DNA of 64,000 nt from a virus, in IMG/VR virus record IMGVR_UViG_3300028534_000002; one strand, given 5' to 3'. Under the pieces are notes generated by a model that was not told the origin of the DNA, searched no databases, and was given only the letters and a program-made list of their open reading frames with translations. The first letter of the stretch is position 1. The number at the start of each line of letters is the position of its first letter. The translations under genes were made by a program, and so were the position numbers. Below, piece by piece: positions 1-64,000 of this stretch.

Positions 1-212
1 TATCAGAGAACATTCTAAAGACATATAGTCTTTACAACATAAGAGACACAATGCAGAAGGTTGGATTAGAACCAATTGGTGTTGAAGTTGATAATCCTGT
101 TCCATGGGCAAAAAAATATATGTACAGTGGAAATGTCCAGACTGCATTAAATGAAACAGATGGAGTTAACTATCTATTTGGGATCCTTGACAAAAACATT
201 GATGAATGGTAA
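1..212 (+). CDS. 3' end of an unidentified CDS entering from the left edge (partial)
   Basis: Frame 3 is open from nt 3 to TAA at 210-212 (...NPVPWAKKYMYSGNVQTALNETDGVNYLFGILDKNIDEW*). It is followed by the hairpin at 273-299 and is convergent with the minus-strand 1735-aa gene. No start codon or recognisable motif. Confidence 0.4.
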   Translation, partial: SENILKTYSLYNIRDTMQKVGLEPIGVEVDNPVPWAKKYMYSGNVQTALNETDGVNYLFGILDKNIDEW

Positions 213-272
213 AGAAAGTAGGTTGTGCACACTATAGTATGTGATGATAACCTATTTGAACCAGTATGTGTT

Positions 273-299
273 TTGCGGTCTAAAAAGTTGAGACCGCAA
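273..299. terminator. hairpin between convergent genes (candidate bidirectional terminator)
   Basis: TTGCGGTC-n11-GACCGCAA, 8-bp perfect stem, between the + strand stop (212) and the minus-strand stop (349). Nested inside GAACCAGT (258-265) ... ACTGGTTC (333-340). Confidence 0.6.
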
Positions 300-348
300 A
301 TAAGAGTTTGTATTTTACATACTTCCCACCTCACTGGTTCATGATTGT

Positions 349-3300
349 CTAATGATACACTTTAAACCATGCGTCTGTATCAAAGATTCCTAATGGTGTT
401 GTAATGTTTGGTGTTACCAGGTTAGATATAACTTCTATTGGGTCATCGCTCTGCCACCTATTGATAATGTTATCAGCTGGTCCATGATCAACAAGCGTAT
501 CCATTGGATCAGCTATATTTATACCAGTAACATGTTGTGCTGTTTGCTGTGCTGCAACAGCAGATGGATTACGTTTTATTACTTTCCAGTATGCCTTATG
601 GTGCTGGAATAAATACTTTAAGAACTGGATACCAAACACTCTTTCAACCCACATTTGTAATCCTGATACGTTGTATCCGTAGTTAATAAACTGCTCATCG
701 ACAAAATCTAATATATCTTGTTGTTCACGTTTGGTTAATTTTCTTTTATTTGTTAGCTCTTTCTTTTTTATCATGTGTTCAAGAAGCATTTGTCTTGCCA
801 ATGTGTCTGCGAACATTGTTATTTGTGTAGCTGTTCTGTGGGCTTGTGTGCCATTTGAGCCATATAGCAATGCCCTGGTTCTTGCAAGCTCAGCAGGAAT
901 TCTAAACTTCCACTTATTGTTTTTTAATTCTTTCTCTACTTCTGATATATATTTATTAACATCACCACCTCTTTCAGCTTTTCTTCTATAAGCTTCAACA
1001 ACTACCTGTGTATAATACTCTCTATCATTCTTTCCTTTCTCTGTCAAATCATTAATTAGATGGCCTATATACCCCTCTGGTTCATCAGATATATCGTCTA
1101 TCATCGCTGTAAACTGACCATCTTTAACAAGTTTAGCGAATGGATGCAAATCAATTCTTTTGTTTAGAATCTTAAGTTTGTCATCTACATCTTCTCCAAA
1201 GTTCTTTCTTAACGCAAGCGATATTCTTTGTCTACTTAAGTCTTGATACTCTTCTAGTTGATACCATTTGTTCCTAAACTCTTTTATATATCTGTATGGA
1301 TTTACACCATGCGACCACATTAGCATCATGTTTGAAATAAAGTTACCAACACCAATATCAGGATTAAATAAAATCGCAACTGTTTTGTTTTTATTAAGAA
1401 TTTCACCCCAAATCTTTTCTGCTGTCTTTATCGCTTTTCTTATTTTGTAACTTTTTATCAGAAGATCTTTATTGTTAGAAAATGGATTGATGTCTGACAT
1501 TGATATGTTTGCTAGAGAAGCTGATCGAGAACCAATCATTAGCTCAAGTATTTCGTCTGGCAAATGCAATACTCCATTATGCATGTCGTTTATATACTTC
1601 TTTACAGATGGAGACAGTTTATCCCATAGGTCTTTATTCTTATTCTTGCTTATTACAATAAAGTCTTTTTTGCTATATTTGTCATCATATTTTGTATCGC
1701 TATAGAACTGTTCTATGACATCAACAGCTTTTCTATTATGTATCGATGTTTGTCTTGCATTAACAAGCCTCTCTATTGTGTATGGAAGTGATGACATTAT
1801 ATCTATTGGAGCACCTATTGATTTTATATCATCATCTGATAACGGGAGTATCCAGTCAATAAGTCTTCCATTTTTGTCGTGTTTTGGCATAAGAACTAGA
1901 CCATCGTCTGACTTAAAAATATCATCTTTTTTTTGCGAAAGCATTTGCTTTAGCATCTTGTCTGTAAATTGAGCTACAGTAAGGTCTTTCATGCTATCAG
2001 GTGTAGATATCTTTTTTGCGTTATACAGAGCTGCTATTATTGACTTGATACCGTTCCCTTTTACTCCAATCGAAATTGAACCAAGCACGCCATCTTCATA
2101 TGGTACTGCGTCTTCTCCATGCTTTACCCTATAGAATTTCTCTCCACCTATTTCAAAACTATCAATTAACTCAATTTTACCAACAGTACTTTTGAATGTC
2201 TTAATATCATTATCGTGAACCAATGAGATCTGATATTTTGCTGTTCCTGTCTTGTTGTCTATAAACCCAAATGGAAGCGAGTTGAATCTTGAATTATCTA
2301 TAAATTCAGAATTTTTATATGCTTCAATTCTTGACTTGTATAGCTTCGTTACATGCTTCATCTCTTCGTTTAACTTTGGATTTTCATGCATAACTTCTAT
2401 AGCAATAAGCTCATCATCAGTCATTGACTCTAACGCTTTCATTGTTACATACTTATTTGCTAGCTCTATATCCTTATTTGTTGCTGTAACCTTGCTTTCA
2501 CCAATGCTTCTTCTTAATGGATCAAAATATCTAAGCAATACGTTTTGTGGATTGATTTGTTGGTTCTCTATGTGAACCTTTCCGTCAAGTGTCCATTTCG
2601 CAATTGCATCAAGATGCTCTTTTACTGAGTCTGTCATATTGTAACTTTTAGACAATTCATCAAGTGCTTCATTTGCCTTTCTTTTTGCCTGTGAGCGCAG
2701 TGACATTGACGAATAGTCAAACTCATCAATGTACTCATACATTCCAGACTTTAAAACTCTATTTACATAAACATACGAATTGTATGTATTGTCAGGGTTT
2801 GCAAGTTCAGTGTTTGACACAATGTTGGTTATCTCTGCAGATATATTTGTCATCATTGCTTCTATTGCTTGCTTCTGTCTTTTTAGTTGCAGAAGTGCTT
2901 GATACTTGTTCGTTGTGAAGTTTTGGAACATTAGGTTTTTCAATACTCTTGATGTCAATATCTTCTTCATAAATGATATCCTTTGTATACCATCAATCGC
3001 ATTTGCAACAACCTTGTTTGATTTTGGATCAAGCTTTGAAATTATTTTGTCTTTTTGTTCAAGTATTTTTCTAACTCCGTCCTCTATTGGGCCAGTAACA
3101 GCTCCCATTGCATCTATCACAGTTGCAGCAGTTTCAAGTGATTGACCAATAAATAATGGAGCATTGCTATACCCTCTTAATGTATCTGAAAAAGTTTCAT
3201 TTGCTAATAGGAATTGTTGTTTTAATTGAAACGCATGAACATCTTGCAATGTCTGCTTCATTATTTCATCACCAGTCTTTCCTATGTTTTGTTTTGGTGA

Positions 3301-5556
3301 AAATATTTTTCTTAATATCTCTGATAAGTATGCTGTCAGAACATCTATTGACCTATTTATTATTCCAAAAATTTTATTTCCACTACCCTTTAGTTTTCTT
3401 ACTTCTGCAAGTCTCGATAGTGCCTCATCAACTTTTGAAGGCACATCTTGTATCTGTATATCTTTTATAGCATCAAATAAGTAGCTATTTGACATTGCAT
3501 ATGCCATGAACTCCTCTATGTCTGCTCCATCTGATAGTATGTAATCAAATTTTCTTTGTATCAATTTCTCGTCTTCAGGAGTTAGTGATGTTGCACCCTC
3601 TTGAACCATTTGAATAGTAAAGACATCTGGACCAAGTTGCTTCTTAACTTCTCTTCTAAGATCCTCGAATGCTTTTCTCATTTTCAAATCTGAATCAAAT
3701 GCTCTTTTAAATAGACTGTGTAAAAGCTCGTGAAGCATTACCTCAGATGCAGAACTTGTTTTATCTGCAGGGTTGAACAGTACCTTGATAGCATCCCTAT
3801 CCTCCTGGTTCTCAAAGTCGAAGTCAGGTGTCCACATACCTTTTGTATTTGTACTATCTGTTACTCCAAGCGAGAAATCTATTTTTGTACCGTTATTCTT
3901 CATTACATCTTGAATTATTTTTAGTACTCTATCCATGTGATCATAATAGTCTTGAGTAATGTTAAGTACCTTTCCTGAAGCCATATCTACTTCTTGTACC
4001 ACCCTACTAAACACATCTCCAAGATTATTTTCTGTCAACAAGTCATTCATAAGTGCCGTCTCTGGAGTTAATTCAACAATGTCATCTGATGATCCCTTAT
4101 TGTAATCTTTATCAAAATTTGGTTCATGACTCTTATCAAATACTACAGCAAGTGACTCTGACAGTAGTGTTCTCTTATCATTATTTTTAACATTTTTTAG
4201 AAAGTGATTTAATATATCTTTTATGTGATCTAGGATTGTTTTTTTACCGTAGACTATCTTGTCTAACTCATCTCTAAGATCTTGTTTTTCGAGTAGTGTT
4301 GCAGTAAACTCATGCTCATTTGTAAACGCATATGTATCTTTCCATTGTGGGTTATGTTTAAGCGCTTCATTCATCAGCTTTTTGATTCTTTTTCTGTAAG
4401 AAGGATTTGAGTTTATCTCTTTTTCTGTAACCAAATGTCCAATTTCATGAATAATAACAGCATACGGATCAATGCTATTGTCTTTAATATTTGCAATATC
4501 GATTCCAATTGAATTTCTTCCTGCATATTGAATACCAGCTTTTCCAAGATTTTCTTGTAGCTTTATTTCAATGTCACCATTTATAGAGCTTAAAAGCAAG
4601 TCTATACTGCGTTTCTCGTCTTCGGTAATGTTTCTGTCAATGTCAGACAACAAGTCCTCTATATCGCTTACTTTTGAAGTTTTAATGCTTGGCTTCATAT
4701 TGTTGAATACAATTTTTCCGTTATCAAGCTTTTTTAGTATCTTGTATTTCTTTTGTTTCTTTCTTCCTTTAAAGAGTCCTATACCATCCTTTTCTCCGTA
4801 TTTATAGTTCTTTGATAGCTCTTCTTTTAATTTTCCTTCTCCTTGACTGTTGTACTCTCTGCTTGAATTTTTGTTGTCATCCAATAGAATAGTTGCTCCA
4901 GCATCTAGCGCTTTTTTTGCTTCTTCAAGAGTTTTATTAAAGTTTTCTTCAGTTATTTTCCCTTTTCCATTTATAGACAAAAACACAATATCATCTGAAG
5001 TATATTTTCCAGAATTTACTCTATCGGCGTGATCTTTTGATAGGACTGATGCATACTTTGCTGTACTTGAACCAGGTGCACCAAACCCTATAAATTTAGT
5101 TGCCTTAGACAGCTTTTTAGGAGCTTTTGTGCTGTCGGCCTTATTTGGACTTAGATTAACTTTTCTAAACGATTCTAGGTCGCCTTGTGTTCCATCTTCA
5201 AGAAATCTAGACTTTCCGTCATCTTCAACATTTGTGAACCAGTCTTTTACCTTGTTGTATGTATCCTCCTGGTTCTTTGTTAGTTTCTGTCCACTATTAA
5301 GCTTTTCTACTGCAGTAAAGAATGCATTTTTTTTTGCACCAAGTTGTCCGCCAGTAAGATCAGGAAACACCTTGTCAAATCCAAGTTCTTTTGCTGTTTT
5401 GCTTCTGCTAAATCTCTCTGGATGAAACTCAGGTCTGAGTCCTTTTCCTAGATCCTCTTTTATAGCTAATATATCTTTTTGAGAAAGTGACTCTTTCTCT
5501 GCATTATCAAGTTCTCTCATTAATGCGTCAAATCGCATTTCACCTGTACAAGCCAT
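349..5556 (-). CDS. giant 1735-aa multidomain protein with two HExxH zincin motifs (putative packaged/ejected polyvalent-type protein)
   Basis: Uninterrupted 1735-codon ORF with AGGAG 6 nt upstream of the ATG. HEIGH at aa 370-374 (nt 4435-4449) and HELLH at aa 609-613 (nt 3718-3732). Last gene of the late operon, directly downstream of the vRNAP-like gene. Confidence 0.6.
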   Translation of the reverse strand: MACTGEMRFDALMRELDNAEKESLSQKDILAIKEDLGKGLRPEFHPERFSRSKTAKELGFDKVFPDLTGGQLGAKKNAFFTAVEKLNSGQKLTKNQEDTYNKVKDWFTNVEDDGKSRFLEDGTQGDLESFRKVNLSPNKADSTKAPKKLSKATKFIGFGAPGSSTAKYASVLSKDHADRVNSGKYTSDDIVFLSINGKGKITEENFNKTLEEAKKALDAGATILLDDNKNSSREYNSQGEGKLKEELSKNYKYGEKDGIGLFKGRKKQKKYKILKKLDNGKIVFNNMKPSIKTSKVSDIEDLLSDIDRNITEDEKRSIDLLLSSINGDIEIKLQENLGKAGIQYAGRNSIGIDIANIKDNSIDPYAVIIHEIGHLVTEKEINSNPSYRKRIKKLMNEALKHNPQWKDTYAFTNEHEFTATLLEKQDLRDELDKIVYGKKTILDHIKDILNHFLKNVKNNDKRTLLSESLAVVFDKSHEPNFDKDYNKGSSDDIVELTPETALMNDLLTENNLGDVFSRVVQEVDMASGKVLNITQDYYDHMDRVLKIIQDVMKNNGTKIDFSLGVTDSTNTKGMWTPDFDFENQEDRDAIKVLFNPADKTSSASEVMLHELLHSLFKRAFDSDLKMRKAFEDLRREVKKQLGPDVFTIQMVQEGATSLTPEDEKLIQRKFDYILSDGADIEEFMAYAMSNSYLFDAIKDIQIQDVPSKVDEALSRLAEVRKLKGSGNKIFGIINRSIDVLTAYLSEILRKIFSPKQNIGKTGDEIMKQTLQDVHAFQLKQQFLLANETFSDTLRGYSNAPLFIGQSLETAATVIDAMGAVTGPIEDGVRKILEQKDKIISKLDPKSNKVVANAIDGIQRISFMKKILTSRVLKNLMFQNFTTNKYQALLQLKRQKQAIEAMMTNISAEITNIVSNTELANPDNTYNSYVYVNRVLKSGMYEYIDEFDYSSMSLRSQAKRKANEALDELSKSYNMTDSVKEHLDAIAKWTLDGKVHIENQQINPQNVLLRYFDPLRRSIGESKVTATNKDIELANKYVTMKALESMTDDELIAIEVMHENPKLNEEMKHVTKLYKSRIEAYKNSEFIDNSRFNSLPFGFIDNKTGTAKYQISLVHDNDIKTFKSTVGKIELIDSFEIGGEKFYRVKHGEDAVPYEDGVLGSISIGVKGNGIKSIIAALYNAKKISTPDSMKDLTVAQFTDKMLKQMLSQKKDDIFKSDDGLVLMPKHDKNGRLIDWILPLSDDDIKSIGAPIDIMSSLPYTIERLVNARQTSIHNRKAVDVIEQFYSDTKYDDKYSKKDFIVISKNKNKDLWDKLSPSVKKYINDMHNGVLHLPDEILELMIGSRSASLANISMSDINPFSNNKDLLIKSYKIRKAIKTAEKIWGEILNKNKTVAILFNPDIGVGNFISNMMLMWSHGVNPYRYIKEFRNKWYQLEEYQDLSRQRISLALRKNFGEDVDDKLKILNKRIDLHPFAKLVKDGQFTAMIDDISDEPEGYIGHLINDLTEKGKNDREYYTQVVVEAYRRKAERGGDVNKYISEVEKELKNNKWKFRIPAELARTRALLYGSNGTQAHRTATQITMFADTLARQMLLEHMIKKKELTNKRKLTKREQQDILDFVDEQFINYGYNVSGLQMWVERVFGIQFLKYLFQHHKAYWKVIKRNPSAVAAQQTAQHVTGINIADPMDTLVDHGPADNIINRWQSDDPIEVISNLVTPNITTPLGIFDTDAWFKVYH

Positions 5557-5596
5557 TGTTTGCTCCTATATACTATGTCTAAGTGTCTACAGTATA

Positions 5597-8500
5597 CTAT
5601 AGACACCCTTTTGTTTTGTCTTCAAAATAAGCTTTGAATTTTTTCTTAACTCTGTCAATTGGAGGAATGTTCTGTTTTTTGTCATCAATTTTCTTGTTTG
5701 CATTTTTTCCAATAAACATATCATATACTCCGTATAAATTTAATCTCTCCTGCTTTAGAAGAGACTCAATGTAAGATACTGCTTTTTTAACGCTATCTGT
5801 CTTATTGTGAACCAGTTGTTGTTCAATGTCATTAATATCATATTTTAGTTCAAGTTTTTCAAAATCTATCGTTCTTGTAATAGCATTTATATCATTTACT
5901 GTTAACCCGTTTTTTGCAGCATCCAATTGAATAAACTCTCTCAACTTGGTTCCATAGAGTTTAATTATTCCACTGTACATTGCTTTAAAATCATCTGACC
6001 AATCTTCAATTTCTCTTGGTCGCTTTTTAGTATGAGCTATATTTACTTCAACAATTCCTGTTCCAGCAACAAACATCTGGTTACTAAAGATTTTATTTAC
6101 ATTTTTATTGAAGTATCTTATTCCTTCGTTGACAACATTTTTTCCATGTGTTATCGCAAATGGAATGCTTAATAAGTTGTGTCCAAGGAATCCCCAGTCT
6201 CCATCTGGCTCAATTGATGCCTCATGCTTTTCAACTGCTATTGTTTTTGTTAGCATTGTATACATTGGTTCTTTTGTTTTATTTTTTGTGTCAATGTATG
6301 TCTTTGTATCCTTTGTTACCTTTCTGTTTATAGCCGATATGGCATCGTCAACACTTAGATCAGCAACACTGTCAATATTAAGTGGTACAACTACAGGCTT
6401 AGTTGCTTTCATAAACATACCATTTGGAGCAACAGCGAACACTTCTGCTTTTGCTACAACCTGCCCAGAATCATCTTTAAACACATCTATTCTTGCTACA
6501 TTTACACCATTGCTGTCATTTATTGATATTGATGCATTTTCTCCATCATTTGACATTATGTATTTAGTTTTTCCTTGGTATCTTTTATTTAGCACCCTTT
6601 TTGGAGCTTTCCCTTTTTCCTTGAAATCAAGAACATATACTGGTGCCCTATTCGTCTTACCTTCAGTAACTGACACATTCTTCTTTACAACTTTTATATC
6701 GTTAGTAAGATTAAAGAAGGCATCTAGTTCATCTTCTGTCATAGACGATACCATCTTGTCTGCTTTTTCCTTATACAATTTAAAGTCCTGTCTCTCAAGC
6801 GACTTCGTAACCCACTCAGTGTTATATATATCTGTTGCATTAGTTATTTTAGATTGAACTGCTCCAACAATTATTGCATCATATATGTTTGTAAAGTCAT
6901 TGTTTTTTAATGATTCTTGCATTACTGACCCATCAAGAGAGTGAATGCTGATTGTTACTGCTGCTCCAGAATTGCTCTTGAAGGTTAGTCCATCAGGAGT
7001 TACAGATGCAAAGTATTCATTTCCGTTTACAACAACTCTTTCAAAATCTCTTGTATTTGATTTTATTGAGTTGTCTGTTTTATACAGTGGTTGTCTTGTT
7101 TCTCCATTATCTAAAGAGTGTCCAAAACCTGATTCATGCAATTTTATTACTTCTTCAAAATACTTTTTCTTTGAAATTGATCCATTCTTTTTTCTTATGG
7201 CATCAAGCTTAACTTTAAGCTTCGCATTGAATACACTAGATACAAGAAGGTCTGTCGCTTTAAATGCATTCCTCATGTCAGATATCTCTCCAAAAGCCTT
7301 GTTTAGTGCATGCTTATAGAAGCTACCTATTGTATTTCTTCCATATGCACTATGAACCATTGCGTGAACATCATCTGATATTTCAATGAATTTATATTGC
7401 TCATTTTTCTCAATCATTCTGCTAAGCTCAACGTCTGTTGGTTCTCTAAAAATATCTCTATCTTTGTCATATATTGAGTAGTTTTTTGTGTTAGAAACAT
7501 ACTCATTTGCAAGCTTTGCTCCGTCTCTCTTGAATGACTCAATATCATCTTTAGATGGATCTTTCTTGTTGCTGTTTCTGTATGAAACAATTAGATTTTC
7601 TACGTGAGAATCAGAAATTGCTTTCTTCAAAATGTCAATAGACTTCGACTCTTTCATTTTGTCACGTATTGCTTTTATAAATGAATTCCATGTTAACGCT
7701 CTCTGTATTGATGATATCATAGCACCATATCCAAACGTCATTGTTGGATCCTTTGACAGAAATCTTAACTCACTAAGTGTTCCTTCTTCAAATACCATTC
7801 CATATAGTCTCTTTGCAAAAGCTGACAATTTATCGAAATTTGTTTTCCCGTCTTTATCTCTTCTTGACTCAAAGGCTTTTTTTGCTTCAAGAGAATACTG
7901 TCCAACTGTTGTATATAGATCAAGGAAAGCATCATATTTATCTCCATCAATCTCTATTCTCTTTACAATTATTTCGCCATCTTTAAGTGTTTCTGTTTCA
8001 CCATTTACAATATCCATATGGTACTTACCAGCCTCAACGAGTGATCCATGTGACAACTCTATTAGATCTTCGTGTATACCATGCTTTTTTGATAGAAGGA
8101 ATTTTGCATACCTTTCAAGTCTCTGTTTTGATTTGTCAGTATAGATACCAGCCTTCTCTAGCATTTTCAGCTGATGATCCCCAAGAACCTTCATATTTAA
8201 TAGTGCAGGACCAGATGTAATACCGTCAGCCTCTCCGTACAGTACTGTTTCAAAACTTGCAGTATCACTGGTTCGATTAAGTTTTCTAAGCTCTTTTGCT
8301 GCCATTACAGAATGCGCACCTTCAAACTTATGGAAGATTGTAGCAAGATTATCACTATCTTCACCAATACCTTTTACATAGTCGCTTAATGCCTTCCACT
8401 CACTCTCGCCGTCTTTATACGTTATTGAAACATTGCCACCATAAACATCTATTCTGCTTCTAATGCTTTTAAATACGTTGTATTTACTGTTCTTGTCAGG

Positions 8501-48186: not shown

Positions 48187-48200
48187 TTTATTGCATCCTT

Positions 48201-51837: not shown

Positions 51838-51860
51838 TATATACCTATAGTGACATCTAA

Positions 51861-52905: not shown

Positions 52906-52927
52906 GCCTCTTCCCCTTCTTTTTTTA
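52893..52927 (+). terminator. rho-independent terminator
   Basis: GGGAGAGG-cttagg-CCTCTTCC followed by CCTTCTTTTTTT. Contains the stop of family-A gene 52501-52905. Confidence 0.75.
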
Positions 52928-53252: not shown

Positions 53253-53272
53253 ACAGTTTCGGGCTTTCTGGT
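53253..53272 (+). promoter_or_regulatory. conserved 20-nt motif TTCAAATCCCACAGTTTCGG (copy 1)
   Basis: 18/20 identical to 57497-57516. Intergenic, 24 nt after a GAACCAGT. Confidence 0.5.
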
Positions 53273-53539
53273 TTAAGTCGTGAACAAAATTTGTCAAATC
53301 CAAAACTTACCTTCAATATATAATGTAAGTTCGACTTTTGATTTCGACCTAAATTTTCCTAAATCAATATTACCTTTTCAAATTTAACATTGAACTAACC
53401 TTCAATCTTTTTGATACTGGTAGTATTGGTATCAACCTGCTGTTGCTCATCTTTGAGCTAACCTTCGTCTACTCTCTGTCATTGTGGAGTAGATTTCGAG
53501 ATCCAGTGATCTTGATACAATTAATACAAAGGATTAACT

Positions 53540-54097: not shown

Positions 54098-54104
54098 GCA
54101 TATT

Positions 54105-54136
54105 TGAACCAGTGAGTGTGTAAGCTCATTGGTTCA
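54105..54136 (+). other. TGAACCAGTGAG-n8-CTCATTGGTTCA hairpin after family-B gene
   Basis: 12-bp stem with a single G-T (G-U) pair on the + strand, 8 nt past the stop at 54097. Confidence 0.75.
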
Positions 54137-54250
54137 TAGTTTGGACTGATGGAGCATATTTCGGTATGTTCCACAGGTTTAAACTGCTATACAAAACATT
54201 CGAGTCTCTAGTTTCATGGCTAGAGATGCTTTAACCACAAAGGATTAATC

Positions 54251-56038: not shown

Positions 56039-56070
56039 CCTAAAGGCTACATAAGTTATACTTTTTTTTA
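56035..56070 (+). terminator. terminator after the RNAP gene
   Basis: GTAGCC-taaa-GGCTAC (includes the stop codon), then ataagttataCTTTTTTTT. Confidence 0.55.
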
Positions 56071-56083
56071 CAAGGAGAACGTA

Positions 56084-57094: not shown

Positions 57095-57124
57095 GCACTC
57101 CTTGTGAGTGTCTTCTTTTTTTTC
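57094..57124 (+). terminator. rho-independent terminator
   Basis: GGCACTC-cttgt-GAGTGTC (one G-U) followed by TTCTTTTTTTTT. Confidence 0.8.
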
Positions 57125-57133
57125 TTAAAACTG

Positions 57134-57156
57134 AAAGAGCATAGCTCTTTTTTATA
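57134..57156 (+). terminator. second tandem terminator
   Basis: AAAGAGC-ata-GCTCTTT followed by TTTTAT. Confidence 0.6.
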
Positions 57157-57397
57157 ATTGTTGTCTTGCAGACGGCTTTTTTTTGTTTATTAAGCGATAA
57201 TGGCATGATATAAGAGGCATGATATGAGATTGTGAACCAGTTGAATGTGTTGTTCTATGAAAGTCTTTATTCTTTTCTATATAAGGCGAAAATGAAATCT
57301 GCTTTAAATTCATTGATTGTGGTGTTTGGAAGAGTTTTTGTGTGTAAAGTGTGGTCTTACACTGTGTATAATGAGACCATACAGTATTTCCTTATTA

Positions 57398-57670
57398 TTT
57401 TGTATATATCTGCATTGTTTTGTATATATCTGCAGAACTATAGGAACAATAGGAATAGTTCTTGTTTCTTGCATTGTTCCTGCATTGTTCCTGTTTTTCA
57501 AATCCCACAATCTCGGTCATTTCCTATTGTTCTTGTTGTTCTGCGAGAATATGGCATATTATTGTTCTTGTGTCCAATTGTTCCTGTTCTAAACTCAGGA
57601 ATAATACAAGAATAATAAAGAAAATAATAGTTCTTATATTTTTTTAACATAATATTACAAGAACTATTGT
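57398..57670. repeat. iteron-like repeat array (candidate replication origin or operator array)
   Basis: TGTATATATCTGCA x2 with period 20 (57401-57414, 57421-57434). GCATTGTTCCT x2 in tandem (57471-57492). ATTGTTC(T/C)TG at 57526, 57561 and 57577. Inverted copies AGGAACAAT (57442) and CAAGAACTATT (57659) versus AATAGTTCTTG (57454). Confidence 0.7.
57497..57516 (+). promoter_or_regulatory. conserved 20-nt motif TTCAAATCCCACAATCTCGG (copy 2)
   Basis: 18/20 identical to 53253-53272. Lies inside the iteron region upstream of the ATPase gene. Confidence 0.5.
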
Positions 57671-57706
57671 ATACTTGTAGTGTATTATATTTTCGGAAAA
57701 GAGTTA

Positions 57707-58762
57707 ATGATGAAAAACTACAAAGAAGAGCTATTCTTGGATGATGCATTCTGGAATAAGTTCGGAGAGATTGAACCAGACAATGCATCAGATAATAAGG
57801 TACTGCCTTACAATGGAGTTGGTTTTGTGTTTGGAAAACCTGCTAGTAGAAAAACAACCATTGTATTAGACACTGTCAAATCAATGTCTTTCGATAGAAA
57901 GTATTACGTTGATTGCGACAGTAAAAGTATAGCACAAGCAAAAACAACATTTACTGAATTATCTAAATTTGATAACTTCAAGTACATGAATACTTTGTTG
58001 GCTGATGTTGAACCAGTAGAGTATCTCAATAGAATACTTGAAACAATCAAGTTGGCAAAAGAAGATGTTAAGTATGAGTTCGATGAAGAACTTCAAGAAG
58101 AAGTTGAGATTAAAGGTGATTTGGTTGATGCTTCGTTTTGTATTGTTGTTGACACTTGGCATCAGGTTATAGAAGATGAAAACGACAATCATCTTGTAAA
58201 GGCTTTGATGAAGAAGTGCAGAAGCTATGCTCAAAGGTATAACATTTTAATTGTATTTATTGCTCATGTTGGCAAGTCTAAAGATAACGATATCAGAGGA
58301 GCATCAGCAGTCTCTGGTGATGCAACATTCAAAGTTCTTGTTGAGTCTTCTGATATTGACAATGAGTTTAAGATAACACCAACAAAAGATAGTTTGGGTA
58401 TTCTTGAATCAAGCACAGCAATATTTACACAAAGCTCATCAATCTCTAACTCAGAGATTAAATATTCAACTGAAATTAAAGAGGAGAAAAAAGTGAAGCC
58501 AAAAGATGCAGCATTACAGGCAACAATGGTGAATATTGTTAGAGATAAAATAAAAGAGAATGGCAATATAAGATTACTGTTTGGGGAGTTTAAAGAGTTC
58601 TTGATTGATAACGCAAACAAGATAAACAAATTTAAGCCATCCGATCCATTATTTTTATCAGAGTATTTTATAAAAAATAACTTTTCTGATTTTGCAACAT
58701 CTTTATTTGAGGTTGAAAATGCAGGTAGACGAAAATATATCGTAGGTATTTTGAACCAGTGA
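57707..58762 (+). CDS. RecA-fold P-loop ATPase (RepA/DnaB-C-terminal-like), 351 aa
   Basis: Start moved to ATG 57707 (GGAAAAGAG RBS). Walker A GKPASRKTT, Walker B FCIVVDTW, then ILIVFIAHVGKS...RGASA. Lies downstream of the iteron array. Confidence 0.65.
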   Translation: MMKNYKEELFLDDAFWNKFGEIEPDNASDNKVLPYNGVGFVFGKPASRKTTIVLDTVKSMSFDRKYYVDCDSKSIAQAKTTFTELSKFDNFKYMNTLLADVEPVEYLNRILETIKLAKEDVKYEFDEELQEEVEIKGDLVDASFCIVVDTWHQVIEDENDNHLVKALMKKCRSYAQRYNILIVFIAHVGKSKDNDIRGASAVSGDATFKVLVESSDIDNEFKITPTKDSLGILESSTAIFTQSSSISNSEIKYSTEIKEEKKVKPKDAALQATMVNIVRDKIKENGNIRLLFGEFKEFLIDNANKINKFKPSDPLFLSEYFIKNNFSDFATSLFEVENAGRRKYIVGILNQ

Positions 58763-58987
58763 TGCACAATGATTGACTTTCTTTAAAAACAATTGTTTAA
58801 AAAATAAGAGCTTTTAACTGCTTACCTATGCCATGGTATAGGAAAGGCATAGTTTTGAGCTCTGAGGCTAAGCTAGACTGCTTAACTAATGTATCAATAT
58901 AAAACAATAAAACTAATTTGAGCCAATCTAAATCTGATTTGTTCTGATGAGTTTTATGCTCAATTTTTTTTCTCAAAAGGATTAACT

Positions 58988-59299
58988 ATGAAAACAACTA
59001 AAATTGAAATTACAACCGACCTTCTTAATGAGATTCTTGTTGACGAGGATCACTCACTCGCTGAGATGATCTTGTGCGAAGATGAGATCATTGATCTCTA
59101 CAATGGTGGAGATATTGATGAGCTCGTTGAGCGAATCAACGCATCTACTGACGACATAGTTGAAGAGATTCAGCGTGCTAAAGAAGATGGCGATAGTCGT
59201 CGTTTCTTCACCTGGGTTCAGGCAATGGAGAATCGTCTTAAGCGTGAGGTTGTGGAGTTCAACTCTACGCCTATTGGTACTTGTAACGACTGTGGATGA
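58988..59299 (+). CDS. acidic protein ending in half a zinc ribbon (103 aa; continues in frame past TGA to 59362)
   Basis: RBS AAAGGATTAACT-ATG. Ends ...GTCNDCG-TGA. The next 20 in-frame codons read TVTRRDGHHCPSCGSDAIIS-TAA, which completes a CxxC-x12-CxxC ribbon. Confidence 0.6.
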   Translation: MKTTKIEITTDLLNEILVDEDHSLAEMILCEDEIIDLYNGGDIDELVERINASTDDIVEEIQRAKEDGDSRRFFTWVQAMENRLKREVVEFNSTPIGTCNDCG

Positions 59300-59425
59300 A
59301 CAGTCACACGCAGAGATGGACATCATTGTCCATCGTGTGGCAGTGATGCCATTATTAGCTAAGGCTAATTTGTAGGCTCTTAGGAGTCTACTGATTAACT
59401 TTTGAACCAAGTAAAGGAGTATGTT

Positions 59426-59608
59426 ATGAAGAAGTTGATTGATGTTGGAGATAGATTTGTATCCAAGAAGTATGGTTACATTGTGACAATTATCAAGTTG
59501 CCTATAGGAAAGGTGTGTTTCTCTGCGCAAAATAGAGATACTGTTGTAGAAATGTCAAAGGCAGACTTCTTCGACTGCTTTAAAAAATTCTTAGAAGGAG
59601 ATAGATAA
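59426..59608 (+). CDS. small early protein (60 aa)
   Basis: Start moved to MKKLIDV (AAGGAG 6 nt upstream). Confidence 0.6.
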   Translation: MKKLIDVGDRFVSKKYGYIVTIIKLPIGKVCFSAQNRDTVVEMSKADFFDCFKKFLEGDR

Positions 59609-59609
59609 G

Positions 59610-59831
59610 ATGAAATATTTACTAATAGTTTTACTTGGATTGGTTCTAGTTGGTTGTGGAGAGACTCAAAACAACATTAATAATGTCCAGTTTACAGCAT
59701 CAGAAATGTATTCAAATTGTATCGAGGATTATATGTCGGATGCTACTAAACTTGATAAAGACCTTGATCCTTATGAAGCAATTGATATCTTGAGTTATCA
59801 AGCTCAAGAATATTGTGACGCTACTCTTTAG
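59610..59831 (+). CDS. small lipoprotein (73 aa)
   Basis: Signal peptide MKYLLIVLLGLVLVG-C with lipobox LVGC. GGAG RBS overlapping the upstream stop. Confidence 0.7.
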   Translation: MKYLLIVLLGLVLVGCGETQNNINNVQFTASEMYSNCIEDYMSDATKLDKDLDPYEAIDILSYQAQEYCDATL

Positions 59832-59924
59832 AGTAGTGCTCAACAATTGAGATACATTCGTGTATTTGACTGGTTTAGCACGCTTCTTTAACCACATTCT
59901 CATAATCTTACAAAGGACAATATC

Positions 59925-60404
59925 ATGACTTACGAAAATCTTACTGTATCTCAAATTATAGCCACAATAAATTCTATTAATAATCTTTACAGAGCCGCAA
60001 AGCCTGCAAAGCCAATTCTCGATGCATTAGAGATCCTCGAGTCAGTTGCTAGTAGCAGAATAGACTTGGAAGAAGAGATCTATTACGATAGATTAGAGTT
60101 TGAGAAATTTGATAAATCCATTCAAGCAGAATTCGACATTAGCAACAACTTCTACGAAGAAGATGTTGATGAATTCGAATGGCATGATAATCCTAATGTC
60201 TATGAACCAGTTCTAGATGATACGGTTCGCTTACTCTTGGATCTCTATCCTAGAGAATCTTTAAACGATATGATGCTGGACTTGATGTCTGGAATCGATA
60301 GAGTATTCTACTCGTTCAATGGCGTACCTCTACTGTTGTCAGAGGAGGCAGAGTTTATAACGATGTCTGCCATCTCGCTACTAGAGAGTCGTATAAAGAG
60401 ATAA
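59925..60404 (+). CDS. strongly acidic early protein (159 aa)
   Basis: About 33 D/E versus 13 K/R by count. RBS AAAGGA. Confidence 0.65.
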   Translation: MTYENLTVSQIIATINSINNLYRAAKPAKPILDALEILESVASSRIDLEEEIYYDRLEFEKFDKSIQAEFDISNNFYEEDVDEFEWHDNPNVYEPVLDDTVRLLLDLYPRESLNDMMLDLMSGIDRVFYSFNGVPLLLSEEAEFITMSAISLLESRIKR

Positions 60405-60478
60405 TATCTCTATTTGAGTGCATATTTGTGCACTCTGATAGGCATATTTATATGTCAATTTTCCTTTAGGAGTTCGAA

Positions 60479-61000
60479 ATGAAATACAGTAAAATGACAG
60501 ATATTGAATTAATCAGCTTAGTTACAGAGAAGTTATCTCCAGAGCAAATTGCTGAGATTAATAATCTGAGTATTGGCCTCAAACCAAAGGCTGATATGCT
60601 TGATGAGGTAAAAAAGACTTTGACTAAAAAGTATCCTGATATTAGAGAAGAGCTTGTTGAGCTTAAGCTTGCCAAGGCCTTAGCACTGGCAAAGAAGCTT
60701 TACCAAAGCTCTCTACATATCGTAGATGGTCATTTGGCTGTTATAAAGACAATCCATATGGACGATGAACTGGATAAGCTCAATGAGAAAGAGTATAAGA
60801 ACTTCCTGTTCATGGCCAACCTCAAGCAAAGCGTTAACACATTAGAGGTGATGGTGCTTGAGCAAGGATTGAGAAAGGTGATGTCAATTAGTAGCAATAT
60901 TCTACTTGATCTCGAGCCAGAGTTGATCGTCGAGATCAAGAAACGCATAAATGGAGAGAAACCTCTACCAGACAACGCACTAGACAACGTAATATTCTAG
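60479..61000 (+). CDS. early protein, family B (173 aa), paralog of 53540-54097
   Basis: See 53540-54097. RBS TAGGAG. Confidence 0.75.
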   Translation: MKYSKMTDIELISLVTEKLSPEQIAEINNLSIGLKPKADMLDEVKKTLTKKYPDIREELVELKLAKALALAKKLYQSSLHIVDGHLAVIKTIHMDDELDKLNEKEYKNFLFMANLKQSVNTLEVMVLEQGLRKVMSISSNILLDLEPELIVEIKKRINGEKPLPDNALDNVIF

Positions 61001-61008
61001 TGGTACAG

Positions 61009-61060
61009 TGAACCAATGAGTGAGTGAGTCTATCCAATAGTAATACTACTCATTGGTTCA
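61009..61060 (+). other. TGAACCAATGAGT-n26-ACTCATTGGTTCA hairpin after family-B' gene
   Basis: 13-bp perfect stem, 9 nt past the stop at 61000. Variant of the 54105 element (GAACCAaT instead of GAACCAgT). Confidence 0.75.
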
Positions 61061-61065
61061 GATAA

Positions 61066-61113
61066 GTTTATATGGACACATCTTTTAATCCTTTGTGGTG
61101 TGTCTATATAAAC
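61066..61113 (+). promoter_or_regulatory. 15-bp-stem hairpin with conserved loop ...AATCCTTTGTGG, upstream of 61133
   Basis: GTTTATATGGACACA / TGTGTCTATATAAAC with one G-U on the + strand. Ends 19 nt before the ATG. Confidence 0.7.
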
Positions 61114-61132
61114 TTATAAATAGGAGTCGAAA

Positions 61133-61534
61133 ATGGCAATATTAAGTAGAGACATAATCAATACACCAAGCGATTTAAAAGGAGTAGCATTAGATACTGG
61201 AGCGGAAGCATTATTTGCTACCAGAGAAGTATTGAGAGTTACAACAAATACTCTTCAACTTATGAACATGATGTTAGAGCGTATGGCTCATGCACTTGAG
61301 TTGATCAATAGTGAAGAGTTAGATGATGCATTCTCTAACATGCTTGAGTCACTTGAAAATATTAAGCGATCAGAAGAGTTCACCGAGGATGAGAAGAAAA
61401 ATCTGTCTTTAATGAGAATTTCTATTTTTGAGATGAGATCCAAAGAAATTGTAGAAAAAGATTACGATACTCATCCAATCAAAGATACAATTGAAGATCT
61501 TAAAAAGAAATACAAAGCAACTAAGAGGGGATAA
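61133..61534 (+). CDS. early protein, family A (133 aa), paralog of 52501-52905
   Basis: See 52501-52905. RBS TAGGAG. Confidence 0.7.
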   Translation: MAILSRDIINTPSDLKGVALDTGAEALFATREVLRVTTNTLQLMNMMLERMAHALELINSEELDDAFSNMLESLENIKRSEEFTEDEKKNLSLMRISIFEMRSKEIVEKDYDTHPIKDTIEDLKKKYKATKRG

Positions 61535-61553
61535 TTCCCTCTCTGCATTGAGC

Positions 61554-61600
61554 TTATATGAGCCTATATTTTCTATATCCTTTGGTATAGGTTCATATAA
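61554..61600 (+). promoter_or_regulatory. 15-bp-stem hairpin with conserved loop ...ATATCCTTTGG, upstream of 61622
   Basis: TTATATGAGCCTATA / TATAGGTTCATATAA with one G-U on the + strand. Ends 21 nt before the ATG. Homologous in layout to 61066-61113. Confidence 0.7.
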
Positions 61601-61621
61601 ATTCAATACAAGGAGAAAGCA

Positions 61622-61852
61622 ATGGATTTTAGAATACCTGATGATTATTGCAAAGCAGAAGTAGCTATGCATAAAATAATAGTCGATACAATCACGAGGT
61701 TCGACAATAAGAGCTTAAATGGAGTCCTGAGACACCTACCTAAGGGTCTAAGACCAAAGCTCTTATTTGGCGTTCTAAGCAGTATCCTTGAAATTAGCCA
61801 AGAACGTTGCAGAAGTGCAGTGAACCAGAAGTATAAGAGGAGAAAAAAATAA
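61622..61852 (+). CDS. small early protein with basic C-terminus (76 aa)
   Basis: RBS AAGGAG at 7-nt spacing. Confidence 0.6.
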   Translation: MDFRIPDDYCKAEVAMHKIIVDTITRFDNKSLNGVLRHLPKGLRPKLLFGVLSSILEISQERCRSAVNQKYKRRKK

Positions 61853-61940
61853 ATATCTATGTAGAAGATGTGTAGGTTCATCGAGTATCCTTAGGGGTAC
61901 TCTCTTGAGCTTAGCTCATATTCTAAAACAGGAGAATGTT

Positions 61941-62117
61941 ATGACGCAGTTAGAATTAGAAACAATTAAGGTACAGGCAGAGGCATTAGAGATTGATATA
62001 GTAGTCACTCACTATGACGTAAACAGATTCAGTGTAACAATTTGTTCACATGTCTACACAGACCTACACAGAGCACTTAGTGCTCTGAGCACTATATTTC
62101 TTAAAAGGAATAAATAA
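61941..62117 (+). CDS. small early protein (58 aa)
   Basis: Start moved to MTQLELE (CAGGAG RBS). The track start at 61905 lies inside a hairpin. Confidence 0.55.
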   Translation: MTQLELETIKVQAEALEIDIVVTHYDVNRFSVTICSHVYTDLHRALSALSTIFLKRNK

Positions 62118-62347
62118 TGATAGATTATGAAGTTTCAAATGTTATTAGTATTGAGTTTTCAGAGCTATCAAAAAATTGCATCAATGGACTTAACAAAATT
62201 AATCCAAGACATTCTCGTATTTCTTTTGGCAAAAGAGAGATTGTTCTTACAATAGAATCTATAGCTACAATACATGAGCTCTATGATATTAAAAAACTAA
62301 TGATTGAAGAAAAATGCAATCTTTTGATTGTATTTGACAGTTATTAA
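62117..62347 (+). CDS. small early protein (76 aa)
   Basis: ATG overlaps the upstream stop (TAATGA). Confidence 0.55.
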   Translation: MIDYEVSNVISIEFSELSKNCINGLNKINPRHSRISFGKREIVLTIESIATIHELYDIKKLMIEEKCNLLIVFDSY

Positions 62348-62425
62348 AAAGTAATAAAACATATCATTTATTACAATATTTAAAAAATATATCAATTAGC
62401 TTACAACATGAATTGTTCTACACAT

Positions 62426-62449
62426 TAAAATAAGCACTTTTTAGTGCTT
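62426..62449. repeat. 24-nt hairpin repeat TAAAATAAGCACTTTTTAGTGCTT (copy 1; candidate terminator)
   Basis: AAGCACT-tttt-AGTGCTT; identical to 63295-63318. Confidence 0.8.
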
Positions 62450-62454
62450 GGCTC

Positions 62455-62483
62455 TTGACAAATAAGTAAATTTTTGATATAAT
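62455..62483 (+). promoter_or_regulatory. consensus sigma70 promoter (TTGACA-17 nt-TGaTATAAT)
   Basis: Perfect -35 at 62455-62460, exact 17-nt spacer, extended -10 TG at 62475-62476, perfect -10 at 62478-62483. Confidence 0.75.
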
Positions 62484-62489
62484 GTTTTT

Positions 62490-62646
62490 TATAAAAAAAC
62501 ATTAAAATCAACTTCCAACAAAGAGGATAACAAAGGTTTACCAGTCTTCCTGTAGCTGTCCTCTTTCTTGGTGGTTGTAACAGCTATGAATGACTGGTAA
62601 TCTTTCAACAAGCTAATCACTAAAATTATAATTATACCGAGGATAA
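62490..62646 (+). promoter_or_regulatory. about 157-nt structured 5' leader of the small ATPase gene
   Basis: Nested stems TTACCAGTC (62538-62546)/GACTGGTAA (62592-62600) and TAGCTGT (62553-62559)/ACAGCTA (62580-62586). A competing pair AAGAGGA (62521-62527)/TCCTCTT (62559-62565). Confidence 0.5.
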
Positions 62647-63297
62647 ATGACACTTATGGATAAAGATAGATTAGTTCTTTCTCCTGTGAAGCGTTTAGCC
62701 GAAGTATTTCCTGAAAATAAGGTAACTTTGGTTCTTGGGCTTCCAGGAAGTGGAAAAACGACCAGTGTGCTTAAAGCACTAAAACAGGACGGAATTAAGC
62801 CAATATGGTTTAATTATGATCATTCTGATACTGTCATTGACACAAGCAATGATGTTGATATGTTTGATGGTGAGTATGTTCCATACTTTATAAATGGAGA
62901 AATAGACGATATAAAAAATCGTGTTATTGTTATTGACACCTATGAAAGAATGTGGGAGCAGCTAGAGTTCAGAAACATGCAGAAGGAGAAAGAGTTCAGA
63001 TTGACAAGAGTTGAGCTTCAGCACAGCATAGTAACACTTCTTGAAAAAGTTTCTGAACAAAACAATAATACTATTATCGTTATAGCTCACCCAGAAGAAT
63101 ATGTTGGTAGAGATGGTATCTTTAAGGACAATCCTACATTGGCTAGAAGAGCCTATGAAATATTGTCTTTTGAAAAGAGACTAAGTACATCAATAAAGGA
63201 GTTAAAGGCTGGAAATGCTGAAACAAATTTTATGTACATAAAGAAAGGCAGATGTTATACTGGAAAAACAACATTCATTGATTGGATGAGAGACTAA
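62647..63297 (+). CDS. small RecA-fold P-loop ATPase (AAA_24/Sak4-like size and motifs), 216 aa
   Basis: Walker A GLPGSGKTT, Walker B RVIVIDTY, then TIIVIAHPE. Motif-level paralog of 57707-58762. Confidence 0.6.
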   Translation: MTLMDKDRLVLSPVKRLAEVFPENKVTLVLGLPGSGKTTSVLKALKQDGIKPIWFNYDHSDTVIDTSNDVDMFDGEYVPYFINGEIDDIKNRVIVIDTYERMWEQLEFRNMQKEKEFRLTRVELQHSIVTLLEKVSEQNNNTIIVIAHPEEYVGRDGIFKDNPTLARRAYEILSFEKRLSTSIKELKAGNAETNFMYIKKGRCYTGKTTFIDWMRD

Positions 63298-63318
63298 AAT
63301 AAGCACTTTTTAGTGCTT
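63295..63318. repeat. 24-nt hairpin repeat (copy 2; candidate terminator)
   Basis: Identical 24-mer overlapping the stop of the ATPase gene 62647-63297. Confidence 0.8.
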
Positions 63319-63456
63319 ATGTATACAATGACATACCTAACAGGTAGAAAGTGGCTAGAATCGCATGCTAGACGCATTAAATGAGGTGCTACTTGGTTCT
63401 AGTTAGTAGAGAACCAGTGAGAGTAGTTAACTTAATCAAATACAAGGAGAAAACAA

Positions 63457-63708
63457 ATGAAAACAGTACAAATGCTAATTGAGAAAGAAATCGCAAAACT
63501 AGGAGACAATGAGTTAGGTTATAAGGAAATTGAAGTAAAGACTCATCTCAAAGATGACATTTACGAAATTCATAGAGCGGCTATTAAGCTTGACAAATTG
63601 AATAAAAAACTTGTATCAGTAGAATACAAAGCTGGCGTGTTTGAGGCACTAGAGAACTACAATGACAGATTGTACATTAGAGAGATCATATCTGAAAAGG
63701 AGTATTAA
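63457..63708 (+). CDS. small early protein (83 aa)
   Basis: RBS AAGGAG. The stop is embedded in the hairpin AAAGGAG-n12-CTCCTTT. Confidence 0.6.
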   Translation: MKTVQMLIEKEIAKLGDNELGYKEIEVKTHLKDDIYEIHRAAIKLDKLNKKLVSVEYKAGVFEALENYNDRLYIREIISEKEY

Positions 63709-63726
63709 CTAAATCTCCTTTCCACG

Positions 63727-63840
63727 TCTAGGTCAATGTGCCTGCACTCAAGGATGGCGTTCACTTTTTTTTAGAGGAGCGGAGCGACGAGAAAAACAAA
63801 GTGGATGGTATCCTTGGAAGTGTAGGTACATTGGTATAGA
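63727..63840 (+). other. long imperfect RNA-type hairpin (candidate ncRNA or RNase III-type processing site)
   Basis: Arms of about 38 nt (63727-63764 and 63801-63840), extended by T8 versus AAAAACAAA. About 7 G-U pairs, all valid only on the + strand. Apical loop agaggagcggagcgacgag. Confidence 0.55.
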
Positions 63841-64000
63841 AACATTTGTTAAACGAGAGATATCCTACCACGCGAAGCGTGTAGTGTTTGGAAGAAACCT
63901 ATCCTTGACTGGTTCCCCAATGCTATGTTATATTTAACTATAAGAAAAACTTATGTAAAAAAAAATAAAATGAGTTTCCTTATATAGTATTAGTATGTAG

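Follow-up and report, generated by a model that had tools for sequence, protein, structure and literature searches.

Genome context and over-representation of GAACCAG

The window analyzed here, i.e., the whole 64,000-nt stretch of IMG/VR virus record IMGVR_UViG_3300028534_000002, is, judging from its genes, part of a divergent N4-like (Schitoviridae) phage of ~99 kb, and it carries one heptamer, GAACCAG, in large excess and in both orientations. Structural and late genes occupy 1 to 51.6 kb and point leftward, and from 52 kb onward the genes point rightward. The portal protein (29900..32323, − strand) is 28–29% identical to the portals of isolated N4-like phages, N4-like podoviruses being the only isolated phages that it matched, and the capsid, the portal, and a gp57-like protein match PHROGs. 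Two adjoining open reading frames (ORFs) resemble the virion RNA polymerase (vRNAP) of N4: a 1735-aa ORF (349..5556, −) matches the C-terminal half (phrog_2206, E = 1.3e-39, profile positions 1860–3372 of 3406), and a 3071-aa product (5597..14812, −) would supply the N-terminal and central part (weak match to Pfam vRNAP_dom_2). The polymerase thus split appears to total ~4800 aa, vs. ~3500 aa in N4. A crAss-like identity, first taken from the giant ORFs and PHROG matches, was dropped because portal and RNAPII searches matched N4-like isolates only. The N4 core replication genes were not found inside the 64-kb window; a near-identical contig, SRR8439170_5366 (98,987 bp), was used to build a 94.3-kb composite genome around it.

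An exact search of the + strand returned 49 copies of GAACCAG and 31 of CTGGTTC (80 in total), along with 25 copies of the 9-mer TGAACCAGT and 11 of ACTGGTTCA. The first-pass annotation of the window, made by eye, had estimated at least 48 and 30 heptamers and ~24 and ~12 of the 9-mers, in close agreement with these counts. Its GC content of ~33% was too low (36.1% measured), and while the strong excess that it described is real, its factor of ~20 comes down to ~15 in our analysis (80 copies vs. 5–10 expected). Dinucleotide shuffles of the window yielded 5.1 copies for both orientations combined (sd 2.2, max 11), Markov models of order 0 to order 3 predicted 4.6 to 9.6, and an order-3 background with the motif masked predicted 5.2. 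GAACCAG ranked first among all 7-mers of the window (z = 22.7), bar two CG-rich words with 1–2 occurrences each.

The copies are dispersed over nearly the entire window. On the + strand (258..63417), they start at positions 258, 5069, 5236, 5809, 8592, 9828, 11700, 12981, 13680, 14463, 15674, 17534, 18896, 20718, 21519, 21661, 22629, 22773, 24998, 26080, 26236, 28191, 28366, 30390, and 31381 in the first half, and at 32997, 33579, 34455, 35976, 37943, 39517, 41417, 42406, 45595, 47196, 48767, 50631, 51229, 53220, 54106, 54668, 56502, 57234, 57773, 58010, 58753, 60204, 61822, and 63411 in the second. The − strand copies, which read CTGGTTC on the + strand (334..63915), start at 334, 875, 1077, 3805, 5269, 8268, 8747, 11365, 13055, 13484, 14075, 16294, 18822, 20516, 21675, 22645, 22793, 24087, 24324, 24838, 28179, 31805, 32778, 34444, 36046, 39941, 44122, 45015, 47536, 52033, and 63909.

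Most copies (69 of 80) lie in called genes and the remaining 11 are intergenic. The first-pass annotation had argued from a few peptide readings (those at 875, 1077, 5069, 5236, 5269, and 5809, all correct) that the enrichment acts at the DNA level irrespective of reading frame, and had proposed counts against codon-preserving shuffles and an order-3 Markov model; the excess holds under both, with no model of the whole window predicting more than 9.6 copies. Within coding sequences, shuffling synonymous codons inside genes yielded 12.8 copies and shuffling codon order 7.3, vs. 69 observed, and the maxima for a single orientation under these codon-preserving nulls were 14 to 16. All six sense frames are occupied, with the word encoding TGS (15), AGS (7), EPV (10), xNQ (15), LVx (6), xWF (5), or RTx (3). 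Beyond a T at position −1 in 47 of the 80 copies and at position +1 in 51, nothing is conserved in the flanks, and since these are otherwise unrelated, the copies are not parts of longer repeats. A handful of repeated segments is therefore ruled out as their source, as is a codon or dipeptide artefact by the codon shuffles in the window and in N4 (see below). Single-mismatch variants are raised unevenly rather than all alike: GAACCAA (37 vs. 9.3 expected) and GATCCAG (19 vs. 6.2) are enriched, and TAACCAG is depleted (1 vs. 6).

Distribution across N4-like phages and their hosts

The enrichment persists, at 1.1 to 1.5 copies per kb, in close relatives of the window phage (portal identities of 98, 77, and 57%), and several relatives at ~30% portal identity showed no excess of GAACCAG. 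Related phages, in which the first-pass annotation had suggested looking for the word, do share the enrichment, starting with coliphage N4 itself (70,153 bp), where GAACCAG is the top 7-mer with 110 copies (1.57 per kb) vs. 8 to 22 expected. In N4 coding sequences, 102 copies occupy all six frames, vs. 28.6 after synonymous shuffling and 16.5 after codon-order shuffling. GAACCAG also ranks first in Klebsiella phage KP8, and GAACCAA does so in Vibrio phage phi1 (95 vs. 30 expected) and Rhizobium phage X2_28B, while the top words of Pseudomonas phage Pae575P-3 are AAGCCAA (67 vs. 14 expected) and AAACCAA; GATCCAA and ACACCAA are further lineage variants. No other word is as over-represented in N4 and several related phages as GAACCAG and its variants, which makes it a signal of the phage family.

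A scan of viral contigs with the inverted 9-mer pair as query identified one further dispersed case, in the human microbiome: contigs L038 and L063 (27 copies in 9.2 kb vs. 0.75 expected). Longer pieces of these contigs hold 45 to 46 copies in 14 kb and encode N4-type RNAP1 and RNAP2; GAACCAG is the top word, at 3.1 per kb, in a human-microbiome N4-like phage. Across that scan, dispersed enrichment was found only in N4-like contigs (L038, L063, and L057), and the idea that L038 was an unrelated family sharing the word through a common host was dropped, as L038 and the window are both N4-like. Contig L070, which holds 10 copies, was rejected: these are ~33-nt iterons in the replication-initiator gene of an unrelated siphophage rather than a dispersed signal, with 9 of the 10 clustered in that gene (10876–11127) and six of them direct at a ~28–34-nt period.

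More generally, a word of the form NNNCCAR ranks first of 8192 strand-merged 7-mer classes in ten N4-like sequences, namely the window, N4, KP8, Vibrio phi1, Rhizobium X2_28B, Pseudomonas Pae575P-3, L197 (human microbiome), L199, L007, and L002. In phage T7, used as a control, no NNNCCAR word was found among the top 12 7-mers. Distant relatives detected through the N4 protein gp43 carry GAACCAG and GAACCAA (L212), GAACCAC and GAACCAT (L213), or GATCCAA and GAACCAA (L214). CCA is common to nearly all lineage variants with a clear signal, and positions 1–3 and 7 vary. Among 51 further N4-like loci (12–22 kb each), an NNNCCAR-type word held rank 1 in 16; across the N4-like family the signal is thus widespread but not demonstrably universal. 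Several high-GC N4-like loci (L225, L277, L279, and L282) are topped by CAAGCTG, GAAGCTG, CAAGCAG, and CCAGCTT, possibly another dialect of this signal.

Secondary words also differ between lineages. In N4 these are GACCCAG and GAGCCAG, with no GATC-containing form: GATCCAG is absent from N4 (NC_008720; L202 and L203) and its order-3 expectation is 0.0, which indicates that GATC is nearly or wholly missing from this genome. In the window clade, unlike in N4, GATCCAG is the second-ranked word. The relative with 57% portal identity, L002 (IMGVR_UViG_3300005095_000028), has two co-dominant words, GAACCAG (21 vs. 2.6 expected) and GATCCAG (16 vs. 2.9), suggesting that position 3 tolerates A or T in that clade. 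The top 7-mer of another N4-like contig, L201 (IMGVR_UViG_2791355157_000004; GC 54%), is GCGATCG (24 vs. 4.5 expected), alongside 18 GAACCAG vs. 6 expected; GCGATCG resembles the cyanobacterial HIP1 palindrome, a hint of a cyanobacterial host for this phage.

N4-like phages of five host genera (E. coli, Klebsiella, Vibrio, Sinorhizobium, and Pseudomonas) contain the word or one of its variants, as do N4-like human-microbiome and environmental contigs. By comparison, 3 copies of GAACCAG fall in 50 kb sampled from E. coli K-12, which N4 infects, i.e., 0.06 per kb vs. 1.57 per kb in N4 (~26-fold). Being shared across phages of unrelated hosts and rare in the E. coli sample, the word belongs to the phage family rather than to the host. 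The Chi word of E. coli, GCTGGTGG, is found 6 times in N4 (2 + 4) vs. 110 copies of GAACCAG. Finally, when 185k genomes were scanned for the hairpin pattern, the first 120 loci listed were random-looking matches, none of these with dispersed enrichment.

Turnover, spacing, and orientation of sites

To follow individual sites between genomes, we mapped them through protein alignments of orthologues. Of 11 window sites compared with L001 (77% portal identity), only 4 are shared; for L002, the figure is 1 of ~17. Sites unique to one genome often fall at amino acid differences (e.g., TGS vs. NAK, or EPV vs. VYD), and CTGGATC is often the counterpart. Since positions turn over while density persists, selection appears to act on density, at some cost to protein sequence.

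The sites are also more evenly spaced than expected by chance. The coefficient of variation (CV) of the gaps between all window sites is 0.81, or 0.73 with close pairs merged (0.98 under random placement), and no gap exceeds 2.7 kb, where random placement gives ~4 kb. In the 94-kb composite, where the two orientations total 66:49 (+:−), the + sites have a mean gap of 1.4 kb and a CV of 0.64 (random placement: 0.98), an evenness that none of 4000 simulations reached; the − sites are random-like (CV 1.02, mean gap 1.9 kb) and leave an 11.9-kb gap. Even spacing was also found in KP8.

With early and middle genes placed on the + strand, + copies prevail in every genome compared: the + fraction is 0.63 in N4, 0.62 in KP8, 0.64 in Vibrio phi1, 0.71 in Rhizobium X2_28B, 0.63–0.68 in Pae575P-3, and 0.61 in the window. 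In N4 the +:− ratio is 31:18 in the rightward-transcribed half and 38:23 in the leftward half, and the presence of the same bias in both halves indicates that it is independent of transcription. The early region is almost entirely + in orientation. In the first 6 kb, + and − sites number 5:0 in N4, 10:1 in KP8, 5:0 in Rhizobium X2_28B, 11:1 in Pae575P-3, and 15:7 in phi1, and window positions 52–64 kb show 11:2; over these six genomes, 11 − sites were tallied vs. ~28 expected. Depletion of the − orientation in the early region is thus a family trait. For the window, the first-pass annotation had already noticed 11 GAACCAG vs. 1 CTGGTTC right of 52.16 kb, and this count is correct. The full polar zone (47543..63908), which coincides with the 11.9-kb gap, contains 14 + copies and a single − copy (52033), and covers the end of the late block (TerL side), the strand switch at ~51.6–52.0 kb, and the first ~12 kb of rightward genes; from synteny with N4, these rightward genes would be the early region.

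A few copies are arranged as inverted pairs. Three intergenic pairs on the late strand (−) belong to one type of cassette, in which a TATAAT-like box lies ~20 nt downstream of a hairpin with the arms TGAACCAG and CTGGTTCAAATC and precedes a late gene: one at 21661..21681 (RNA fold −11.0 kcal/mol, z = −3.4), a TGAACCAGT / ACTGGTTCA pair at 22629..22651 (−13.5 kcal/mol, z = −4.6), and a third at 22773..22799 (−11.1 kcal/mol, z = −4.7). The first also includes a promoter-like match, TTCAAA-18-TATGAT, whose −10-like box is the one ~20 nt downstream on the − strand. These cassettes look like late terminator and promoter units that also contribute one site per orientation, and they hold only 6 of the 80 copies. 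In all three (21600–21700, 22568–22668, and 22712–22812, −), the hairpin end is GTTCAAATC, which has 4 copies in the window vs. ~1 expected, including one at 53242–53250 (+). Two further inverted pairs lie within coding sequences, with CTGGTTC and GAACCAG separated by atcaa (28179..28197) or ttga (34444..34461). A strong intergenic hairpin at 54105..54136 (+) combines a perfect arm, TGAACCAGTG, with an imperfect one, CATTGGTTCA (RNA fold −19.9 kcal/mol, z = −5.0).

Candidate readers of the word and implications for N4-like phages

The most likely explanation for these patterns is that GAACCAG is the local form of an N4-family DNA signal that usually reads GA[A/T]CCA, with a seventh base differing by lineage. 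This signal is probably functional, a density-selected and oriented oligomer that would follow the logic of a primase site. The first-pass annotation had offered two kinds of interpretation, of which dense recognition by an enzyme or binding protein that the phage encodes fits best; its analogies with host uptake sequences and Chi did not survive, as the same word or close variants top the rankings in N4-like phages of unrelated hosts. Promoters of the N4 RNAPII or vRNAP are ruled out, since known promoters differ and 80 to 110 intragenic sites in two orientations cannot all be promoters. In N4, early promoters form hairpins with a 3-nt loop, and the middle promoters, used by RNAPII, extend from −7 to +2 and are rich in A and T (PMC4496689, PMC9163698). 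In the 94 kb examined, no RNAPII gene was clearly recognizable, bar a weak match at 54251–56038 (+), where a 595-aa ORF faintly resembles the N4 RNAP2 PHROG (E = 0.003); the middle polymerase of the window clade would be either very divergent or encoded in the ~5 kb not retrieved.

Our tentative preference, to which we give roughly one chance in three, is that GAACCAG is the initiation site of the gp43-type primase that is the hallmark of this family. The word would be kept at ~1 to 3 per kb on both strands by selection on density rather than position, and its reader would be a phage-encoded protein, not one of the host. The gp43-type primase-helicase, which combines an archaeo-eukaryotic primase core with PriCT-1, would initiate at the word on the single-stranded lagging-strand template. 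A 6–7-nt site would arise by chance only once per 8 to 16 kb per strand, and Okazaki priming every 1 to 2 kb would force many extra copies in any frame; in this scheme the site is too rare by chance, hence the selection for more. Within the template word 5′-NNNCCAR-3′, CC would template a pppGG start, with A and R as uncopied 3′ bases. The + excess, together with the almost pure + orientation of the early region, would then imply forks that start at the left end and travel mostly rightward. Every link from the word to the primase and to fork direction is one that we infer. Lagging-strand priming is favored because it fits a phage-encoded reader, kilobase spacing on two strands, indifference to genes, a directional bias, an orientation that is dispensable at the left end, and a CCA core.

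The gene content is consistent with this scenario. The gp43 homologue of the window phage lies ~18 kb left of the window (L210:528-2435); it matches phrog_2135 'DNA primase' (E = 9e-40) and N4 gp43 (BLASTP E = 3e-19), and has the invariant primase motifs. [quoted passage not shown] N4 gp43 itself contains DUF3987 and PriCT_1 domains. Known primase sites, such as 5′-(G/T)(G/T)GTC-3′ for T7 gp4, GTT/GCT for T4, CTG for E. coli DnaG, and GTG for pRN1 ORF904, are short and asymmetric, are read on the single-stranded template, are needed on both strands at kilobase intervals, and have a conserved initiation core, uncopied 3′ bases, and a more variable extension part, all features that GAACCAG would share. 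The T7 primase leaves the 3′ base of its site uncopied and makes the primers pppACCA and pppACCC; ACCA is contained in GAACCAG. As far as is known, initiation at a specific sequence with uncopied 3′ bases is the rule for primases (T7, T4, DnaG, and pRN1), and the pRN1 primase requires GTG, read by its helix-bundle domain. The conservation of CCA next to variable positions 1–3 and 7 is compatible with this core and extension logic, although not specific to primases. Both strands carry sites, at mean gaps of 1.4 kb (+) and 1.9 kb (−), with a consistent + excess that might reflect a predominant lagging-strand template; evenness of the + sites was seen in the window phage and KP8 but not in the three other genomes compared. 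We also note that the T7 site GGGTC is mildly enriched in the T7 genome (94 vs. 55 expected).

Several observations weigh against a gp43 site. First, gp43 is confined to N4-like phages (469 GenBank records), so its distribution is inseparable from that of vRNAP, RNAPII, gp24/25, the exonuclease, Sak4, and SSB; the best 80 gp43 loci are all from close N4 relatives. Second, the window phage and N4 have exactly the same heptamer despite only 22% identity between their gp43 proteins, whereas closer N4 relatives use GAACCAA or AAGCCAA. Third, known primases read 3 to 5 nt, i.e., sites common by chance, not 7, whereas the word here has 6 to 7 nt and is enriched 5- to 36-fold, and we know of no strong genome-wide enrichment of any known primase site. 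Fourth, a simple fork model for a linear genome predicts a reversal of polarity at the right end, which is not seen (the last ~10 kb of N4 show 13:6), and the polar zone of the window crosses the presumed genome terminus. Finally, even spacing was not found in N4, phi1, or Pae575P-3, and about two-thirds of the 51 further N4-like loci, mostly high-GC, have a different and mostly weaker top word.

A less probable explanation, unlikely yet still credible, is that the word is a duplex-DNA site through which another conserved N4-family protein organizes the genome, be it in condensation or packaging, stepwise transcription-driven entry, or the coupling of replication and late transcription; such a role would call for a dense array, in either orientation, over the full length of the chromosome. 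Family spread, host independence, and selection on density are equally expected here, the transcription-independent + bias would suit a process of fixed direction such as left-end entry or packaging, and the hairpins made of motif pairs sit directly upstream of the −10-like boxes of late genes. Comparable words are the KOPS of FtsK (GGGNAGGG) and the SRS of SpoIIIE, also oriented heptamers or octamers with a gene-independent strand bias across the genome. KOPS-type words are, however, far more skewed than the 62:38 observed here, a ratio that is weak for a strictly polar translocation signal, and their skew flips at dif, whereas that of GAACCAG shows no reversal along N4 or the 94-kb composite, its sole feature being the loss of one orientation in the early region. 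In addition, no candidate sequence-specific duplex binder was identified; N4 gp2 is reported to bind single strands without sequence specificity (PMC4496689), and Drc and N4SSB are reported single-strand binders as well (PMC4496689, PMC7145618).

It is improbable that the word instead acts as a phage-encoded, Chi-like marker of self, read by the gp37 helicase, the gp42 exonuclease, the Sak4-like protein, and SSB, which would protect phage DNA during replication or recombination, or direct recombination-dependent replication. Its density in two orientations, its independence of frame, and the contrast with the E. coli sample would all suit such a marker, as would the conservation of the recombination module beside gp43 in both N4 and the window phage. 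Like Chi (GCTGGTGG in E. coli, with equivalents in other species), GAACCAG is an over-represented, oriented oligomer in the 5–8-nt range acting at the DNA level. Chi is, however, host-specific and strongly co-oriented with replication, whereas GAACCAG is the same across phages of different hosts, and under RecBCD-type rules the orientation that would protect against entry from the left end is the depleted one, i.e., the end-proximal orientation is opposite to that expected. We know of no precedent for a phage-encoded Chi system, and N4 is not known to degrade host DNA.

More improbable again is a target for a phage-made, site-specific nick or base or backbone modification, akin to the nick consensus of T5 and Pseudomonas phage tf or to phosphorothioation at GAAC/GTTC or CCA. 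GAAC and CCA, the cores of Dnd and Ssp phosphorothioation, are both contained in GAACCAG, and the phage encodes several HNH and GIY-YIG nucleases as well as a weak methyltransferase-like ORF. Target status alone would nonetheless not explain a 15-fold enrichment that persists while sites turn over rapidly. Near-identical contigs differ in their nuclease genes, which resemble mobile homing genes, and the 94 kb examined showed no dnd, ssp, or other modification genes. The nick consensus sequences of T5, the phiKMV group, and tf are, as here, short and phage-specific, at defined positions of virion DNA, but they involve a handful of sites, often on one strand, and are not enriched within coding sequence; ~110 nicks per genome would also clash with the behavior of N4 DNA as an intact linear molecule. 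As for the nuclease genes themselves, one 524-aa ORF with an HNH endonuclease domain (23902–25476, −) adjoins the major capsid gene in the window. Contig L016, identical in other respects, lacks it and has a 354-aa KilA-N ORF after the capsid gene. The HNH ORF was probably inserted or exchanged as a mobile, homing-type element. The left flank (L018/L210; SRR8439170_5366, 9.6–28 kb) encodes a ribonucleotide reductase large subunit with a LAGLIDADG-domain intein, with GIY-YIG (SegE-like) and several HNH genes nearby, suggesting that the replication module is dense in selfish elements.

Less likely still is a functionless word produced by mutational or repair drive, for instance biased repair resembling very-short-patch repair, or the retention of primers from an error-prone primase-polymerase. 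Such a drive would account for the fast positional turnover, for sites arising by amino acid-changing substitutions, and for the uneven pattern of near-variants in the window, with GAACCAA and GATCCAG enriched and TAACCAG depleted. It is countered by the even spacing of + sites and the regional depletion of one orientation, which point to functional selection, and by the persistence of the same word across deeply diverged lineages. Lastly, a host-derived signal, either an uptake sequence or host Chi, is effectively excluded: GAACCAG does superficially resemble the Haemophilus USS and Neisseria DUS in a density of ~1 per kb, presence in any frame, even spacing, intergenic hairpin pairs, and turnover with density kept, but those reside in the genomes of competent hosts, where the uptake machinery reads them, whereas the same word is shared by E. 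coli and Klebsiella phages and low-GC metagenomic phages of a lytic family infecting unrelated hosts, with variants in Vibrio, Sinorhizobium, and Pseudomonas phages, scarcity in the E. coli sample, dispersed enrichment restricted to N4-like contigs in the viral scan, and none among the first 120 genome-scan matches listed.

Despite over 50 years of work on coliphage N4 and hundreds of public N4-like genomes, the strongest k-mer signal in many of them is apparently undescribed: in the open-access literature searched, no description of the word was found, either alone or together with N4, Schitoviridae, or primase. The word points to an unrecognized sequence-specific DNA transaction common to the N4-like family. 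In our assessment, how N4 replicates, from its origin and the direction of its forks to the specificity of its primase, has long been a gap, and the word offers a concrete way in, open to immediate testing in N4 and E. coli. In practical terms, it is a cheap marker to flag N4-like contigs in metagenomes, and when therapeutic N4-like phages are recoded, synonymous changes could destroy needed sites. Returning to the gp43 primase, it is possible, though doubtful, that Schitoviridae genomes have been selected to carry an unusually long (6–7 nt), lineage-tunable gp43 initiation word about every kilobase, co-evolving with the primase. If true, this would be the first case of primase specificity writing the dominant k-mer signature into a genome, and fork direction and initiation zones would become readable from sequence alone.

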